Shown: positions 75 through 58,329 of the stretch, in pieces
Numbering within the stretch: the first letter of the stretch is position 1
Layout of the letters: the number at the start of each line of letters is the position of its first letter
Source of the DNA: Escherichia coli
GTDB lineage: Bacteria > Pseudomonadota > Gammaproteobacteria > Enterobacterales > Enterobacteriaceae
Strand: one strand, 5' to 3'
Length of the DNA stretch: 64,000 bases
Assembly (NCBI RefSeq): GCF_048403405.1
Contig: NZ_CP183129.1
Position numbers and translations under genes: made by a program
Notes under the pieces: generated by a model
What the model saw: only the letters and a program-made list of their open reading frames with translations
Told to the model about the DNA's origin: nothing
Database searches by the model: none

Positions 75-1418
75 TTAAAGCAAACCACAGCGACGTTTAC
101 TGCGATCTTCCGCTTCCTGATAAAGCTGGAACTCATCCAAAACCGGGCAGCCCAACGCCTGCTCAAATGTTTCGCGACTGGCATTACCGTGACTGCGTGC
201 CTGCGTTTCATTACCCAGATTTGACTGGAAGATCCCCGCCGCGCTAACGGGCAAGAAATCTTCATAGGTAATGGGTTGCGCCACTATCCAACCACGTTCA
301 ATTAAGGGCTGTGGATCGTCTCCGGGATGAATCGCCTGACGATGCGCCTCACCTGAAGGCGTCAGACGGTACCGGAACCATGCCAACCCTTGCTGACGCA
401 TTAAAAACTCACTGTCAGGAAAAGTGCGGAAGGTTTCCTGTAAATGCATTTGGTGAGTGAGATTATCCTGCCCGGTTCCAGCGTTACGCAGAAGATCATC
501 ATACAGTTGTCGCCCTTTCGGCGTTAATGCCACACCACGCTGCTCTATTTCACCAAAGCGCGCGGTATGCGTACCCTGTTTCTGCCCTGCAAACAACACC
601 GTCTCTTCCAGTGCTTTAAAGCTGGTCTGGCGTAGTAAAATCGGTACCTCGCGGCGCGGCGGCCCTTCGATCAGAATTTTGGGTTCAATCCCGCATTCAG
701 GCATCATCGACTGCACCCGGTCAATATCCAGCGTACGTGGCGTCAGGTGGTTGATATGGCATCCAGGAAAACAGACCACATCAGCAATCAACCGATGTTC
801 GTTGTGCAAGGCGCGATAGGTTTCTTCATCTACCGTTGCTGACTGGTGCCAACGAAACGTTTCCAGGGCTTCCTGCACAAACTCCTGTGCGTGTGTTTCG
901 TTAAAACCGCCCCGCTGCTCATATTCCTCTAACAGTTGTCGACAACGTGGGGTGAAGATATCGCGCTGACGCAGAATCTCCTCCGCTTTCTGGCGCAAAA
1001 TTTCGTTCTCGATAAGCTCAAGGCGGAGTAATGAAGTAAAAACGCGGAAGGGATTACGCGCCAGAGAAGCATCATCAATGGGCCGAAATGCTGTCGAATG
1101 TACCGGCACCCCCGCCCGCGAGAGATCGTAATAGCTCACCGGGTACATCCCCATAATGGCAAACATCCGCCGAAGAGTAGCAAGCTCTTGTGCAGTCCCA
1201 ACACGAATCGCCCCATGACGTTCAACATTCAGTCGCGCCAGCTCGTCTGCATTTACCATTTTTTCGTGCAGTTGAGGATTGTTTTCCAGCACAGCCAGAT
1301 TCACATCAGCTACCAGTTCCAGCAGCGTGCCGTACTGCGGAACTTCTTGCTGGTACATGGCTGACATTGCCTGCGAAAACTGTTCCCGAATCTCATCCGC
1401 CGTGATGCTGTTCGCCAT
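75..1418 (-). CDS. ydcJ: DUF1338-family protein YdcJ
   Basis: 447-aa ORF matches YdcJ in length and sequence as I recall it; position next to ydcI/trg. Confidence 0.9.
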   Translation of the reverse strand: MANSITADEIREQFSQAMSAMYQQEVPQYGTLLELVADVNLAVLENNPQLHEKMVNADELARLNVERHGAIRVGTAQELATLRRMFAIMGMYPVSYYDLSRAGVPVHSTAFRPIDDASLARNPFRVFTSLLRLELIENEILRQKAEEILRQRDIFTPRCRQLLEEYEQRGGFNETHAQEFVQEALETFRWHQSATVDEETYRALHNEHRLIADVVCFPGCHINHLTPRTLDIDRVQSMMPECGIEPKILIEGPPRREVPILLRQTSFKALEETVLFAGQKQGTHTARFGEIEQRGVALTPKGRQLYDDLLRNAGTGQDNLTHQMHLQETFRTFPDSEFLMRQQGLAWFRYRLTPSGEAHRQAIHPGDDPQPLIERGWIVAQPITYEDFLPVSAAGIFQSNLGNETQARSHGNASRETFEQALGCPVLDEFQLYQEAEDRSKRRCGLL

Positions 1419-4302: not shown

Positions 4303-4611
4303 CGACCAAAAACCTCTTTGCGTCACATTTTTACAACAATTATGGCAGAGAAGAATAATGCCATTGGAATGAAGAGAGTAACGAATGATTAAACTGGCTA
4401 AACCGAATGACGAAAAATTCTGGAAAACAGCACGCAATTTCGTGAAGTGATTATTTTCGTCCCTAAGGAAACCTCATAGGATGCCTGCGGGTGCCTGAGA
4501 CTTTCTGTTTTCAGGCTAACCGGGAATCAGAAAGACGAAGGCCCCGACCGATATTTCTATCAACTGTACTGCACCCATTTTGTTGGACGATGAAATGGAA
4601 TAGCCCCTAAT

Positions 4612-5133
4612 ATGTCAAAGCCAAAATACCCTTTTGAAAAGCGCCTTGAAGTCGTGAATCACTACTTCACAACTGATGATGGTTACAGGATCATCTCGGC
4701 ACGTTTTGGTGTCCCCCGAACCCAGGTCAGGACATGGGTTGCCCTCTATGAAAAACATGGAGAAAAAGGTTTAATTCCCAAACCTAAAGGCGTTAGTGCT
4801 GATCCAGAGTTGCGTATTAAGGTCGTGAAAGCTGTGATCGAGCAGCACATGTCCCTTAATCAGGCTGCTGCTCACTTTATGCTTGCTGGTAGTGGTTCTG
4901 TAGCCAGGTGGCTGAAGGTCTATGAAGAGCGCGGAGAAGCTGGTTTACGCGCGCTCAAGATTGGCACCAAAAGAAACATTGCAATATCAGTTGATCCAGA
5001 AAAAGCGGCATCAGCATTGGAGCTGTCAAAAGACCGACGCATTGAGGATCTTGAAAGGCAAGTTCGATTTCTTGAAACGCGGCTTATGTATCTAAAAAAG
5101 CTGAAAGCCTTAGCTCATCCCACGAAAAAGTAA
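4612..5133 (+). CDS. insJ: IS150 OrfA (InsJ), HTH DNA-binding protein
   Basis: 173 aa MSKPKYPFEKRLEVVNHYF..., recognised as IS150 InsJ. Confidence 0.9.
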   Translation: MSKPKYPFEKRLEVVNHYFTTDDGYRIISARFGVPRTQVRTWVALYEKHGEKGLIPKPKGVSADPELRIKVVKAVIEQHMSLNQAAAHFMLAGSGSVARWLKVYEERGEAGLRALKIGTKRNIAISVDPEKAASALELSKDRRIEDLERQVRFLETRLMYLKKLKALAHPTKK

Positions 5134-5981
5134 AAGTACTCAACGAGCTAAGGCAGTTTTATCCTCTTGATGAGCTTCTCAGGGCTGCGGAGATACCGCG
5201 CAGTACGTTTTATTACCATCTAAAGGCTCTCAGCAAGCCTGACAAGTATGCGGACGTTAAAAAGCGTATTGGTGAGATTTATCACGAGAATAGAGGCCGA
5301 TACGGATACCGTAGGGTAACGCTGTCTCTTCATCGAGAAGGGAAACAGATTAACCATAAAGCTGTTCAGCGCCTGATGGGAACCCTCTCACTTAAAGCAG
5401 CGATTAAGGTCAAGCGATACCGCTCTTACAGAGGAGAGGTAGGGCAAACCGCCCCTAATGTTCTCCAAAGAGATTTCAAGGCTACGCGGCCAAACGAGAA
5501 GTGGGTTACCGATGTTACTGAATTTGCAGTCAATGGGCGCAAGCTGTATTTGTCTCCAGTAATAGATCTCTTCAACAACGAAGTTATTTCTTACAGCCTT
5601 TCGGAAAGACCAGTGATGAACATGGTTGAGAATATGCTCGATCAGGCATTCAAAAAGCTTAATCCTCACGAGCATCCTGTTCTGCACTCTGACCAGGGAT
5701 GGCAGTATCGTATGAGAAGATATCAAAATATCCTTAAAGAACATGGTATTAAACAAAGCATGTCCAGAAAAGGCAATTGTCTGGATAATGCTGTGGTGGA
5801 GTGTTTCTTTGGAACCTTAAAGTCGGAGTGTTTTTATCTTGATGAGTTCAGTAATATAAGCGAACTGAAGGATGCTGTTACGGAATATATTGAATACTAC
5901 AACAGCAGAAGAATTAGCCTGAAATTAAAAGGTCTGACTCCAATTGAATATCGGAATCAGACCTATATGCCTCGTGTTTAA
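5094..5981 (+). CDS. insK: IS150 OrfB (InsK) DDE transposase, expressed by -1 frameshift from OrfA
   Basis: orfB frame is open from 5076 with no canonical start before 5376; slippery heptamer A AAA AAG at 5094-5100; catalytic domain in 5376-5981. Confidence 0.85.
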
Positions 5982-6476: not shown

Positions 6477-6720
6477 ATAACCTCCATGGTTTATCGAATC
6501 TTATGTTCGATTTGAACGTTATACGCTGGTTTATTTTGATACCGTTGATGAGATCAAAGATCGGGCGAATTGATTAAAGATAAGCCAGATGGACGTATGG
6601 ATAAGGATTATGGTTTTATTTGTCATACAAATAAATATAATAGGCGCTTCCGATGTAGACCCGTATTCTTCGCCTGTACCACGGGTCGGTTTTAGTACAG
6701 GCGTTTTCTTTAAATATCCT

Positions 6721-7251: not shown

Positions 7252-7439
7252 AACATTTCCTGCTTTAACATAATTTTCCGTTAACATAACGGGCTTTTCT
7301 TAAAATTTCATTAAATATTGTTCACCCGTTTTCAGTACGTTACGTTTCACGGCAAGAATGTAGATTGCCCATCCCGCCATCGTGGTCTAAGCCTGGAAAG
7401 GATCAATTTTCATCCGAACGTTCCTGACAGGAGAAGACC

Positions 7440-8441
7440 ATGAGTAAAGTTGGTATTAATGGTTTTGGTCGTATCGGTCGACTGGTGTTGCGTCGATTAC
7501 TTGAAGTCAAAAGCAACATAGACATTGTTGCTATTAATGATCTCACTTCCCCAAAAATTCTCGCCTACCTGTTGAAACATGATTCAAACTACGGACCGTT
7601 CCCCTGGAGCGTTGATTTTACGGAAGATTCACTTATCGTTGATGGAAAAAGTATCGCGGTTTACGCCGAAAAAGAGGCTAAAAATATTCCGTGGAAAGCG
7701 AAAGGCGCAGAAATCATTGTCGAATGTACTGGCTTTTATACCTCCGCCGAGAAATCGCAGGCGCATCTTGATGCTGGTGCGAAGAAGGTGTTGATTTCCG
7801 CCCCTGCCGGTGAAATGAAAACCATCGTTTATAACGTCAATGACGACACACTGGATGGCAACGACACCATTGTTTCCGTGGCGTCATGCACCACTAATTG
7901 TCTTGCACCGATGGCCAAAGCCTTGCACGACAGTTTCGGAATAGAAGTCGGCACGATGACGACCATTCATGCCTATACCGGCACTCAGTCACTGGTGGAT
8001 GGCCCGCGTGGTAAAGATCTACGCGCTTCACGTGCAGCGGCAGAAAATATCATTCCCCACACTACGGGGGCGGCAAAAGCCATTGGTCTGGTGATCCCAG
8101 AACTGAGCGGCAAACTGAAAGGTCATGCACAACGCGTACCCGTGAAAACCGGTTCGGTGACTGAACTGGTGTCTATTCTTGGAAAAAAAGTGACTGCCGA
8201 AGAGGTGAACAACGCGCTTAAAAACGCGACAAACAATAACGAGTCATTTGGTTATACCGATGAAGAAATAGTCTCTTCCGATATCATTGGCAGCCATTTC
8301 GGTTCGGTGTTTGATGCCACGCAAACCGAAATTACCGCCGTGGGCGATTTACAACTGGTGAAAACGGTCGCCTGGTACGATAACGAATATGGCTTCGTCA
8401 CGCAGCTTATTCGCACCCTCGAAAAATTCGCTAAACTCTGA
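7440..8441 (+). CDS. gapC: glyceraldehyde-3-phosphate dehydrogenase C (intact)
   Basis: 333 aa, NAD-binding GxGRIGR, active site [10 protein letters not shown]; uninterrupted frame. Confidence 0.9.
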
Positions 8442-49825: not shown

Positions 49826-52800
49826 ATGATTACTATTGACGGTAATGGCGCGGTTGCTTCGGTGGCGTTTCGCACCAGTGAAGTTATCGCCATCTACCCT
49901 ATTACCCCCAGTTCCACGATGGCAGAACAGGCTGATGCCTGGGCCGGAAACGGCTTGAAGAACGTTTGGGGAGACACACCACGCGTGGTTGAAATGCAGT
50001 CGGAAGCGGGTGCTATCGCTACCGTGCATGGCGCTTTGCAGACGGGTGCCCTTTCAACATCGTTTACGTCATCGCAGGGTTTGCTGCTGATGATCCCGAC
50101 GCTGTACAAACTGGCAGGCGAACTGACGCCATTTGTCCTGCATGTAGCGGCACGTACCGTTGCCACACATGCACTCTCTATTTTTGGCGATCATTCCGAC
50201 GTTATGGCGGTGCGCCAGACGGGTTGCGCGATGTTGTGTGCGGCTAACGTCCAGGAAGCGCAAGACTTTGCTCTCATTTCGCACATCGCAACGCTGAAGA
50301 GCCGCGTGCCATTTATTCATTTCTTTGATGGTTTCCGCACGTCCCACGAAATCAATAAAATTGTCCCGCTGGCCGATGACACTATTCTTGATCTCATGCC
50401 GCAGGCCGAAATTGATGCTCATCGCGCCCGGGCGCTCAACCCGGAACATCCGGTGATCCGCGGTACGTCCGCCAATCCTGACACTTATTTCCAGTCTCGC
50501 GAAGCCACCAACCCCTGGTACAACGCGGTCTATGACCATGTTGAGCAGGCGATGAATGATTTCGCTGCCGCGACAGGTCGTCAGTATCAGCCGTTTGAGT
50601 ATTACGGGCATCCGCAAGCTGAACGAGTGATTATCCTGATGGGCTCAGCCATTGGCACCTGTGAAGAAGTGGTTGATGAATTGCTAACCCGTGGCGAAAA
50701 AGTCGGCGTGCTGAAAATTCGCCTGTACCGCCCCTTCTCAGCCAAACACTTGCTACAAGCTCTGCCGGGATCCGTACGCAGCGTGGCGGTACTGGACAGA
50801 ACCAAAGAACCCGGTGCCCAGGCAGAACCGCTCTATCTGGATGTGATGACCGCACTGGCAGAAGCCTTTAATAATGGCGAGCGCGAAACCCTGCCCCGTG
50901 TCATTGGTGGGCGCTATGGTCTTTCATCCAAAGAATTTGGCCCGGACTGTGTACTGGCGGTATTTGCCGAGCTCAACGCGGCTAAACCGAAAGCGCGCTT
51001 TACGGTTGGTATTTACGATGATGTGACCAATCTGTCACTGCCGTTGCCGGAAAACACCCTGCCAAACTCGGCGAAACTGGAAGCCTTGTTTTATGGCCTT
51101 GGTAGTGATGGCAGCGTTTCCGCGACCAAAAACAATATCAAGATTATCGGTAATTCCACGCCGTGGTACGCACAGGGCTATTTTGTTTACGACTCCAAAA
51201 AGGCGGGCGGCCTGACAGTTTCTCACCTTCGCGTGAGCGAACAGCCGATTCGTTCCGCTTATCTCATTTCCCAGGCTGATTTTGTTGGCTGCCACCAGTT
51301 GCAGTTTATCGATAAATATCAGATGGCTGAGCGTTTAAAACCTGGCGGCATTTTCCTGCTCAACACGCCGTACAGCGCAGATGAAGTGTGGTCGCGCTTG
51401 CCGCAAGAAGTTCAGGCCGTGTTAAACCAGAAAAAAGCGCGCTTCTATGTGATTAACGCGGCGAAAATCGCCCGCGAATGTGGCCTGGCGGCCCGTATTA
51501 ATACCGTCATGCAGATGGCTTTTTTCCATCTGACGCAAATTCTGCCTGGCGATAGCGCCCTCGCAGAATTGCAGGGTGCGATTGCCAAAAGTTACAGTAG
51601 CAAAGGTCAGGATCTGGTGGAGCGCAACTGGCAGGCTCTGGCGCTGGCGCGTGAATCCGTAGAAGAAGTTCCGTTGCAGCCGGTTAATCCGCACAGCGCC
51701 AATCGACCGCCTGTGGTTTCCGATGCCGCTCCTGATTTCGTGAAAACCGTTACCGCGGCGATGCTCGCCGGGCTTGGTGATGCCCTCCCCGTTTCGGCGC
51801 TGCCGCCAGACGGCACCTGGCCGATGGGCACCACGCGCTGGGAAAAACGCAATATCGCCGAAGAGATCCCCATCTGGAAAGAGGAACTCTGTACCCAATG
51901 TAACCACTGCGTCGCTGCTTGCCCACACTCAGCTATTCGCGCAAAAGTGGTACCGCCTGAAGCGATGGAAAACGCCCCTGCCAGCCTGCATTCGCTGGAT
52001 GTGAAATCGCGTGATATGCGCGGGCAGAAATATGTCTTGCAGGTGGCTCCGGAAGATTGCACCGGTTGTAACCTGTGCGTCGAAGTTTGCCCGGCGAAAG
52101 ACCGTCAGAATCCAGAGATTAAAGCCATCAATATGATGTCTCGCCTGGAACATGTCGAAGAAGAGAAAATCAATTACGATTTCTTCCTCAACCTCCCAGA
52201 AATCGACCGTAGCAAACTGGAACGTATTGATATTCGTACATCGCAGCTGATTACACCGCTGTTTGAATATTCAGGTGCTTGCTCCGGTTGTGGCGAGACG
52301 CCGTATATTAAATTGCTGACTCAGCTCTATGGTGACCGGATGTTGATCGCTAACGCCACCGGCTGTTCTTCAATTTATGGCGGTAACCTGCCCTCTACAC
52401 CGTATACCACCGATGCCAACGGTCGTGGACCGGCATGGGCGAACTCGCTATTTGAAGATAACGCCGAATTTGGCCTTGGTTTCCGCCTGACGGTCGATCA
52501 ACACCGTGTCCGCGTGCTGCGTCTGCTGGATCAATTTGCCGATAAAATCCCGGCGGAATTACTAACTGCGTTGAAATCAGACGCCAAGCCAGAGGTTCGT
52601 CGTGAACAGGTTGCAGCTTTACGCCAGCAACTCAAAGATGTTGCCGAAGCACATGAACTGCTACGTGACGCAGATGCACTGGTAGAAAAATCAATCTGGC
52701 TGATTGGTGGCGACGGCTGGGCTTACGATATCGGCTTTGGCGGTCTGGATCATGTATTGAGTTTGACGGAAAACGTCAACATTCTGGTGCTGGATACGCA

Positions 52801-53350
52801 ATGCTATTCCAATACCGGTGGTCAGGCGTCAAAAGCGACACCGCTGGGTGCAGTAACTAAGTTTGGCGAGCACGGCAAACGTAAAGCGCGTAAAGATCTT
52901 GGCGTCAGTATGATGATGTACGGCCATGTTTATGTGGCGCAGATTTCTCTCGGCGCGCAGCTGAACCAGACGGTGAAAGCGATTCAGGAAGCGGAAGCGT
53001 ATCCGGGACCATCGCTGATCATCGCTTATAGCCCGTGTGAAGAGCATGGTTACGATCTGGCACTCAGTCACGACCAGATGCGCCAACTCACTGCCACCGG
53101 CTTCTGGCCGCTATATCGCTTCGATCCACGTCGAGCCGATGAAGGCAAACTGCCGCTGGCGCTGGATTCACGCCCGCCGTCAGAAGCACTGGAAGAAACG
53201 TTACTTCACGAGCAGCGTTTCCGTCGTCTGAATTCGCAGCAGCCAGAAGTGGCAGAACAGTTATGGAAAGATGCTGCAGCTGATTTGCAAAAACGCTATG
53301 ACTTCCTGGCACAAATGGCCGGAAAAGCGGAAAAAAGCAACACCGATTAA
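49826..53350 (+). CDS. ydbK: pyruvate:flavodoxin/ferredoxin oxidoreductase
   Basis: 1174 aa; two 4Fe-4S Cys motifs (CTQCNHCVAACP, CTGCNLCVEVCP). Confidence 0.95.
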   Translation: MITIDGNGAVASVAFRTSEVIAIYPITPSSTMAEQADAWAGNGLKNVWGDTPRVVEMQSEAGAIATVHGALQTGALSTSFTSSQGLLLMIPTLYKLAGELTPFVLHVAARTVATHALSIFGDHSDVMAVRQTGCAMLCAANVQEAQDFALISHIATLKSRVPFIHFFDGFRTSHEINKIVPLADDTILDLMPQAEIDAHRARALNPEHPVIRGTSANPDTYFQSREATNPWYNAVYDHVEQAMNDFAAATGRQYQPFEYYGHPQAERVIILMGSAIGTCEEVVDELLTRGEKVGVLKIRLYRPFSAKHLLQALPGSVRSVAVLDRTKEPGAQAEPLYLDVMTALAEAFNNGERETLPRVIGGRYGLSSKEFGPDCVLAVFAELNAAKPKARFTVGIYDDVTNLSLPLPENTLPNSAKLEALFYGLGSDGSVSATKNNIKIIGNSTPWYAQGYFVYDSKKAGGLTVSHLRVSEQPIRSAYLISQADFVGCHQLQFIDKYQMAERLKPGGIFLLNTPYSADEVWSRLPQEVQAVLNQKKARFYVINAAKIARECGLAARINTVMQMAFFHLTQILPGDSALAELQGAIAKSYSSKGQDLVERNWQALALARESVEEVPLQPVNPHSANRPPVVSDAAPDFVKTVTAAMLAGLGDALPVSALPPDGTWPMGTTRWEKRNIAEEIPIWKEELCTQCNHCVAACPHSAIRAKVVPPEAMENAPASLHSLDVKSRDMRGQKYVLQVAPEDCTGCNLCVEVCPAKDRQNPEIKAINMMSRLEHVEEEKINYDFFLNLPEIDRSKLERIDIRTSQLITPLFEYSGACSGCGETPYIKLLTQLYGDRMLIANATGCSSIYGGNLPSTPYTTDANGRGPAWANSLFEDNAEFGLGFRLTVDQHRVRVLRLLDQFADKIPAELLTALKSDAKPEVRREQVAALRQQLKDVAEAHELLRDADALVEKSIWLIGGDGWAYDIGFGGLDHVLSLTENVNILVLDTQCYSNTGGQASKATPLGAVTKFGEHGKRKARKDLGVSMMMYGHVYVAQISLGAQLNQTVKAIQEAEAYPGPSLIIAYSPCEEHGYDLALSHDQMRQLTATGFWPLYRFDPRRADEGKLPLALDSRPPSEALEETLLHEQRFRRLNSQQPEVAEQLWKDAAADLQKRYDFLAQMAGKAEKSNTD

Positions 53351-53378
53351 ATGCACTGGATAAGGATTATCCAATTCT

Positions 53379-53483
53379 AAAAAAAAGCCCGGACGACTGT
53401 TCGGGCTTGTCTCATTATTTGTTGGATAAACAGTAACAAGGGTCCAACAGAAAATAATCTTTGTGACAATAAAGGCATATAAC
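53379..53483 (-). ncRNA. micC: MicC small regulatory RNA (ompC/ompD repressor)
   Basis: minus-strand 5' GTTATATGCCTTTATTGTCACA... and 3' terminator AAGCCCGAACAGTCGTCCGGGCTT plus T-run match MicC as I recall it; divergent from ompN. Confidence 0.75.
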
Positions 53484-53711
53484 CCGCGAAGAATAACGCA
53501 TCACTATTTAAATGTATAATTTTTATTTTGTATATGTCGCCAATAATATATTCACCAAACTTATCATCATTTCCGTAGAATTATTTGATTAAGGTTTTAC
53601 TTAAGGCGTAACAAATGATATTTATCGGCTAACGGAACTTCTCCTTTAGGATGTTTTCACTCCCCAAAATGGGGATGAAAAGGCAAATAAAATAACTAAA
53701 GGATTTATTCA

Positions 53712-54845
53712 ATGAAAAGCAAAGTACTGGCATTTTTAATTCCTACCCTGCTCGCCGCAGGTGCTGCACATGCAGCCGAAGTTTATAATAAAGACGGCAA
53801 CAAATTAGATCTGTATGGCAAAGTTGATGGACTACATTATTTTTCTGATAATTCAGCGAAAGATGGCGACCAGAGCTATGCGCGTCTGGGTTTTAAAGGC
53901 GAAACCCAAATTAACGATCAACTTACTGGCTACGGTCAATGGGAATACAATATTCAGGCAAACAACACTGAATCCTCAAAAAACCAGTCATGGACCCGTC
54001 TGGCATTTGCCGGACTGAAATTTGCAGATTACGGTTCTTTCGATTACGGACGTAATTATGGCGTAATGTACGACATCGAAGGCTGGACCGATATGCTGCC
54101 TGAATTTGGCGGTGACTCTTATACCAATGCAGACAACTTTATGACTGGTCGTGCCAATGGCGTCGCGACTTATCGTAATACTGATTTCTTCGGTCTGGTA
54201 AATGGTCTGAACTTCGCGGTGCAGTATCAAGGTAACAACGAAGGTGCCAGTAATGGTCAGGAAGGCACCAACAACGGACGTGATGTTCGCCATGAAAACG
54301 GTGACGGCTGGGGTCTTTCCACAACATATGATTTAGGCATGGGCTTTAGCGCTGGTGCGGCATACACCTCTTCTGACCGCACCAATGACCAGGTTAACCA
54401 TACTGCGGCGGGTGGTGATAAAGCAGACGCGTGGACTGCTGGGCTAAAATACGATGCTAACAATATTTACCTGGCAACCATGTATTCAGAAACGCGTAAT
54501 ATGACCCCGTTTGGCGACAGCGATTATGCTGTTGCTAACAAAACCCAGAACTTTGAAGTTACTGCACAGTACCAGTTTGATTTTGGTCTGCGTCCGGCAG
54601 TCTCTTTCCTGATGTCTAAAGGCCGTGACCTGCACGCTGCCGGTGGTGCAGACAACCCGGCAGGTGTTGATGATAAAGATCTGGTTAAATACGCCGATGT
54701 TGGCGCGACTTACTATTTCAACAAAAATATGTCCACCTACGTTGACTATAAAATCAACCTGTTGGATGAAGATGACAGCTTCTACGCTGCCAACGGCATC
54801 TCTACCGATGATATTGTCGCTTTAGGTCTGGTTTATCAGTTCTAA
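53712..54845 (+). CDS. ompN: outer membrane porin N
   Basis: 377 aa general porin with signal peptide and C-terminal YQF. Confidence 0.9.
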
Positions 54846-54904: not shown

Positions 54905-55420
<516 letters not shown>

Positions 55421-55427
55421 CACTAAC

Positions 55428-55452
55428 GCCCGCACATTGCTGCGGGCTTTTT
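55428..55452 (+). terminator. rho-independent terminator of uspF
   Basis: GCCCGCA-cattgc-TGCGGGC followed by TTTTT. Confidence 0.8.
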
Positions 55453-55595
55453 GATTCATTTCGCAAATGTGCTGACATTTTCCCCTCTAATCCGTACCAT
55501 ACACGCCACAGTTTTTATATCAGATTTCTTATGCTGGGCGTTCCGGCATGACGCATACTCTTCTGATGCCATATAACGAATTGAGTCGCTTTTAA

Positions 55596-56531
55596 ATGTC
55601 GCAAAATCAAGAAATTAGTAAGAAAGAACAATACAACCTGAACAAATTACAAAAACGTCTGCGTCGTAACGTGGGCGAAGCCATTGCTGACTTCAATATG
55701 ATTGAAGAAGGCGATCGCATCATGGTTTGCCTCTCCGGGGGTAAAGACAGCTATACCATGCTGGAGATTCTGCGCAATTTGCAGCAAAGCGCGCCAATCA
55801 ATTTTTCGCTGGTGGCTGTCAACCTCGATCAAAAACAACCGGGCTTCCCGGAACACGTTCTGCCCGAGTATCTTGAAAAGCTGGGCGTTGAGTACAAGAT
55901 TGTGGAAGAGAACACTTACGGTATCGTGAAAGAGAAGATTCCGGAGGGCAAAACCACTTGCTCACTGTGTTCTCGTCTTCGTCGCGGTATCCTTTATCGT
56001 ACCGCAACGGAACTGGGAGCGACGAAGATCGCGCTGGGTCACCATCGTGACGATACCCTGCAAACGTTGTTCTTAAATATGTTCTACGGCGGCAAGATGA
56101 AAGGTATGCCTCCGAAACTGATGAGCGATGATGGCAAACATATCGTGATTCGTCCGCTGGCCTACTGCCGCGAGAAAGATATTCAGCGTTTTGCCGATGC
56201 AAAAGCGTTCCCGATTATTCCGTGCAACCTGTGCGGTTCACAGCCTAACCTGCAACGTCAGGTGATTGCTGACATGTTGCGTGACTGGGATAAACGTTAT
56301 CCGGGGCGTATCGAGACGATGTTCAGCGCGATGCAGAATGTGGTGCCGTCGCATCTGTGCGATACCAACCTGTTCGATTTCAAAGGCATTACCCACGGTT
56401 CTGAAGTGGTTAACGGGGGTGATCTGGCGTTTGATCGCGAAGAGCTCCCTCTACAACCGGCGGGTTGGCAGCCTGAAGAAGATGAAAATCAGTTGGATGA
56501 GTTACGACTGAATGTGGTTGAAGTGAAATAA
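55596..56531 (+). CDS. ttcA: tRNA 2-thiocytidine(32) synthetase
   Basis: 311 aa with PP-loop SGGKDS. Confidence 0.9.
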
Positions 56532-58236: not shown

Positions 58237-58329
58237 ATTTCCCTCCGGTCATTGGGTGGACTCTTAAAGGGTAGACGCTGATAAATAACAGGCAAAATAA
58301 ATATCCTCCGGCATAGCCGGAGGTTTTTC

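Follow-up and report, generated by a model that had tools for sequence, protein, structure and literature searches.

The uspF-ttcA junction of the Escherichia coli DNA analysed here (a stretch of 64,000 nucleotides, called the window below) is almost certainly an empty attB site for Rac-type lambdoid prophages. The two genes are adjacent, the 26-bp core shared by both ends of Rac in K-12 is found unrecombined near the start of ttcA, the 5′ end of ttcA is of the native type, and Rac sequence is absent from the window. In lysogens, a 50-bp segment comprising this core is duplicated imperfectly, and the ttcA ORF is intact in both the occupied and the empty state.

The interval between uspF and ttcA

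In the window, the order nifJ (ydbK), ompN, uspF and ttcA is followed, 3′ of ttcA and on the opposite strand, by dbpA, ynaL, an IS200C copy, fnrS and zntB (Table 1). A preliminary description, made from the sequence alone, had placed the end of uspF at 55420 and the start of an intact 311-codon ttcA at 55596, and both coordinates are exact according to the ORFs. The uspF gene is 99.5% identical to K-12 b1376 at the nucleotide level, with 1 amino-acid difference, and flanks the site on the same side as the right end of Rac in K-12. The RefSeq annotation of the chromosome NZ_OX030728.1 (isolate 68, Spain), which shares 24 kb with the window at 100% identity, likewise lists uspF and then ttcA, with nothing between them.

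That no DNA is inserted between the two genes, as had been proposed, is borne out by the content of the spacer, which consists of a terminator-like hairpin and of non-coding sequence. The hairpin stem (55428..55447) has 7 pairs, 6 of them G-C, and is followed by TTTTTGATTC. A single weak sigma-70-like match lies at 55472..55500, and is no better than what is expected by chance from shuffled sequence. An Rfam scan gave no match in the spacer, the known sRNAs all being elsewhere in the window. Except for one base in a T-run, the spacer is the same as the one separating uspF from ttcC in K-12, and it is 100% identical to that of GN02461, a strain with an occupied site described below.

Table 1. 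Coordinates of the features discussed, numbered from the first nucleotide of the window.
Feature	Position	Strand	Remarks
sok	4489..4641		Rfam match
RydC sRNA	6647..6710	+	At or above Rfam gathering score
nifJ/ydbK	49826..53350	+	
MicC sRNA	53371..53486	-	Between nifJ and ompN; at or above Rfam gathering score
ompN	53712..54845	+	
uspF (universal stress protein F)	54986..55420	+	ORF, 144 codons, TGA at 55418-55420
uspF-ttcA spacer, native ttcA upstream region	55421..55595	+	175 bp, no inserted DNA
Terminator-like hairpin and T-run	55428..55457	+	Directly 3′ of uspF; consensus match only
ttcA (tRNA 2-thiocytidine(32) synthetase)	55596..56531	+	Uninterrupted ATG ORF, 311 codons
Segment duplicated imperfectly by Rac-type prophages	55596..55645	+	50 bp, from junction alignments
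attB core, AAGAAAGAACAATACAACCTGAACAA	55620..55645	+	26 bp, ttcA codons 9-17; common to the window and both K-12 junctions
tnpA of IS200C	58406..58864	-	
STnc490	58873..58996		
fnrS sRNA	59009..59126		Rfam match still full-length

Mapping of attB by comparison with K-12

The preliminary description had stated that in K-12 a Rac prophage of some 23 kb separates ttcA from the uspF side. The MG1655 annotation agrees, as it reports a "cryptic prophage Rac" of 23,060 bp (1411899..1434958) between ttcA and ttcC/uspF, in the order dbpA, ttcA (1411013..1411948), Rac with intR and xisR first, ttcC, uspF, ompN and ydbK. The same arrangement, with Rac between ttcA and ttcC′, has been published (Liu et al. 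2015, Sci Rep 5:16074, PMC4632033). In the annotation, the first 50 bp of ttcA are also counted as part of the Rac feature, and ttcC is a 51-bp pseudogene (1434958..1435008).

The window was aligned with both K-12 Rac junctions, attL in ttcA and attR at ttcC. The uspF-side junction is the same as the window from uspF through 55645, the T-run base of the spacer excepted, and the ttcA-side junction matches it from 55620 onward. The core AAGAAAGAACAATACAACCTGAACAA is the sole block identical in all three sequences, with diagnostic differences on each side: phage-type bases border it on the left at attL and on the right at attR. To its left, K-12 ttcA carries the phage-borne ATGCAAGAAAATCAACAAATTACA where the native sequence is ATGTCGCAAAATCAAGAAATTAGT; to its right, K-12 ttcC is followed by phage DNA. 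Both junctions of GN02461 contain the identical core. As the 26 bp are common to both junctions and bounded by phage-type bases, strand exchange is confined to 55620..55645. Over the whole duplicated segment, the window equals K-12 ttcC at 50 of 50 positions, and 7 positions are different in the phage-borne copy.

The attB core is thereby identified, and it is unrecombined in the window. For the interval first singled out, 55421..55600, the adjacency of uspF and ttcA holds, but the attachment core does not lie there, being inside ttcA. An attB located in the spacer was also considered, and is rejected given the bounds on the crossover.

A native TtcA N-terminus

Compared with K-12, the ttcA gene of the window differs at 7 nt among the first 24, versus 20 nt in the remaining 912. 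The latter, with 3 amino-acid changes, are ordinary allelic differences; the contrast between the two parts is the signature of a phage-supplied ttcA 5′ end in K-12. The phage-type end begins ATGCAAGAAAATCAAC, and that of the window is of the native (ttcC, or TtcA′) type. At the protein level, K-12 TtcA starts with MQENQQITKK, and the window protein departs from it at residues 2, 3, 6 and 8 (S2, Q3, E6 and S8 in the window). The window thus has the native N-terminus, the same as in K-12 ttcC, and this pseudogene is the only place where K-12 has kept the native form. This comparison shows that the N-terminus of K-12 TtcA and the region upstream of it are phage-derived. These observations fit with the report that Rac excision changes four N-terminal residues of TtcA, owing to the imperfect match of attL and attR, and that strains whose ttcA contains no rac-like prophage have the TtcA′ form; TtcA and TtcA′ had different effects on fitness under carbenicillin (PMC4632033).

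An occupied site in a near-identical relative

Strain GN02461 (NZ_CP095533.1) has a Rac-like prophage of ∼54 kb at the same core, at about 2563214..2617550, between ttcA and uspF. Its genes run intR, xisR, rcbA, ralR, recT, recE, racC, kilR, sieB, ydaT-V and lysis genes, then trkG, terminase, capsid and tail genes, and finally sitABCD, which adjoins uspF. The sitABCD iron/manganese transporter is thus a cargo at the uspF-proximal end of a full-size prophage. Outside the prophage, the 4-kb nifJ-ompN flank is identical to that of the window, and the two ttcA genes differ only at nt 4-7, 16, 23 and 24, i.e. at the seven phage-type bases, with 912 identities out of 912 beyond. At the sequence level, the window is precisely what GN02461 would be minus its prophage.

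Such a match raises the question of whether this lineage formerly carried a Rac-like prophage and lost it by precise excision mediated by IntR and XisR. Several facts are in keeping with this history: subtracting the prophage from GN02461 yields the exact window sequence, in the spacer as in the 912 ttcA bases; 4 of the 6 chromosomes having the identical 4-kb flank show extra places matching Rac modules (see below); and K-12 has been shown to regain the native TtcA′ by precise excision (PMC4632033). However, precise excision and a state of never having been integrated yield the same sequence, so that the window cannot tell "unoccupied" from "cleanly excised", and the data agree equally well with a recent gain of the prophage by the relatives. 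We therefore regard past excision as possible, but on balance doubtful. A more specific version, in which a ∼54-kb Rac-like prophage with sitABCD has recently been excised precisely from the lineage of isolate 68 and strain 4621, is proposed only tentatively and is rather unlikely; if true, it would be a natural excision that brings back the ancestral TtcA and at the same time removes an iron/manganese uptake system. The empty attB is the reading that we retain for the site as it now stands.

Search for Rac sequences in the window and in its relatives

With the Rac interior as query, neither blastn (word size 11) nor tblastx found any match in the 64-kb window. Together with the native junction, this supports the initial proposal that no Rac or Rac-like element occupies the ttcA site.

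The possibility of Rac genes lying elsewhere in the genome was addressed in part, on two chromosomes taken to be the source of the window or near-clones of it: NZ_OX030728.1 and NZ_CP103479.1 (strain 4621), to the second of which the window is also essentially identical. A chimeric query was built from the 4-kb nifJ-ompN anchor joined to K-12 intR-xisR, recT and racR-ydaS-ydaT; it covers 3.6 of the 23 kb of Rac, and in megablast detects identities of roughly 85% or better. NZ_OX030728.1 and NZ_CP103479.1 matched the anchor only. The modules are detectable by this approach, as 4 of the 6 chromosomes with a 100%-identical anchor (MS 69-1, GN02461, TUM1226 and TUM14771) gave three places and served as positive controls.

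A Rac or Rac-like prophage integrated at another locus of this genome is therefore very improbable: two chromosomes practically indistinguishable from the window have no megablast-level match to any of the three modules, and the window itself is free of Rac sequence. It should be kept in mind that this genome-wide result concerns 3.6 kb of Rac modules, and that CFT073 has rac integrated elsewhere than in ttcA (Liu et al. 2015, PMC4632033). As for the spacer being a scar or the degraded leftover of some earlier element, the chance is negligible and we reject it, since the spacer matches that of K-12 but for one T-run base and that of GN02461 exactly, both of them located outside the prophage, and nothing in it resembles the Rac interior.

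Frequency of the empty site among E. coli genomes

We then asked how often the junction is found intact. With a 241-bp query (55480..55720), 2488 of 5410 complete E. coli genomes (46%) have an intact junction, and a 1.7-kb junction query gave 2487 genomes. In genomes sampled from the remainder, the uspF-side match ends at query position 166, i.e. 55645 in the window, which is the end of the core, and the ttcA-side match begins at query position 124, i.e. 55603. We conclude that an empty ttcA site is a common, routine strain polymorphism, already described. In some genomes, only the ttcA-side piece (query 124..241) matches, and in a single place, which suggests that the uspF-side junction next to the prophage has been deleted or replaced, or has diverged.

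Proposed course of integration and excision

From the position of the core, the tyrosine integrase IntR would catalyse exchange within the 26 bp, in ttcA codons 9-17, and the excisionase XisR would serve the reverse reaction. Excision has indeed been reported to depend on XisR, which binds the right attachment site, attR (PMC4632033). The phage arm beside the core would bring a substitute ttcA start, composed of the ATG and 8 codons and leading to four amino-acid substitutions; owing to this substitute, ttcA would stay full-length upon integration. The same event is expected to put intR directly upstream of ttcA, and to strand the native promoter region, along with the first 17 codons (the ttcC pseudogene), next to uspF. 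The gap between intR and ttcA is only 51 bp in K-12, and the phage arm presumably supplies upstream signals as well as the surrogate start.

In the window, integration has either never happened or been exactly reversed. Transcription of ttcA would start from a native promoter within the 175-bp spacer, where the promoter-like match is no better than chance. Considering its identity to the sites occupied in relatives, the site could probably accept a Rac-type phage.

Other features of the window

A copy of IS200C of ∼700 bp (∼58302..59002) is inserted at the 3′ end of fnrS, between fnrS and ynaL. K-12 and GN02461 lack this copy, and the zntB-ynaL gap is 274 bp in both. A 24-kb query matched 13 to 18 places in the window-identical chromosomes, which is consistent with multiple IS copies. 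Near the other end of the window (∼4489..5963), an IS150 transposase with a programmed frameshift adjoins a hokB/sok type I toxin-antitoxin locus. A gene annotated as "gap" (∼7422..8423, corresponding to 585046..586047 of NZ_OX030728.1) is intact; it is probably gapC, of which K-12 has a split pseudogene. Finally, beyond smrA, the last part of the window (62531..64000) has a frameshifted efflux gene of the DHA2 family of MFS transporters and an HlyD-family gene, whereas K-12 carries mcaS and abgR in their place; this is strain-specific content.

Significance and comparison with known systems

The window provides the native, uninterrupted ttcA locus, and thereby an attB reference for Rac-type phages. 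Beyond correct annotation, the finding has little importance. The known consequences of the presence or absence of the prophage are the TtcA/TtcA′ switch and the cargo genes recET, kilR, trkG and sitABCD; judging from the locus, the strain would offer a free integration site and be devoid of Rac cargo at ttcA.

Compared to the Rac region of K-12, the 26-bp core and the flanking genes are alike, but the K-12 site is occupied: it has 23 kb of phage DNA and a ttcC pseudogene, and its ttcA has a 5′ end of the phage type. The window is without all three. The GN02461 prophage has its integration point, core and flanks as in the window, the difference being the ∼54-kb insertion that the window lacks; Sp10 and CP-933R of O157:H7 are prophages of the same kind (PMC4632033). 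The closest counterparts are K-12 after Rac excision and rac-free strains such as HS, IAI1 and UMN026 (PMC4632033), in which uspF and ttcA are adjacent as they are here. Residues S2, Q3, E6 and S8, as well as a core located in the 5′ coding end of ttcA, are common to the window and to both of these states, and we see no difference of substance between the window and either of them.
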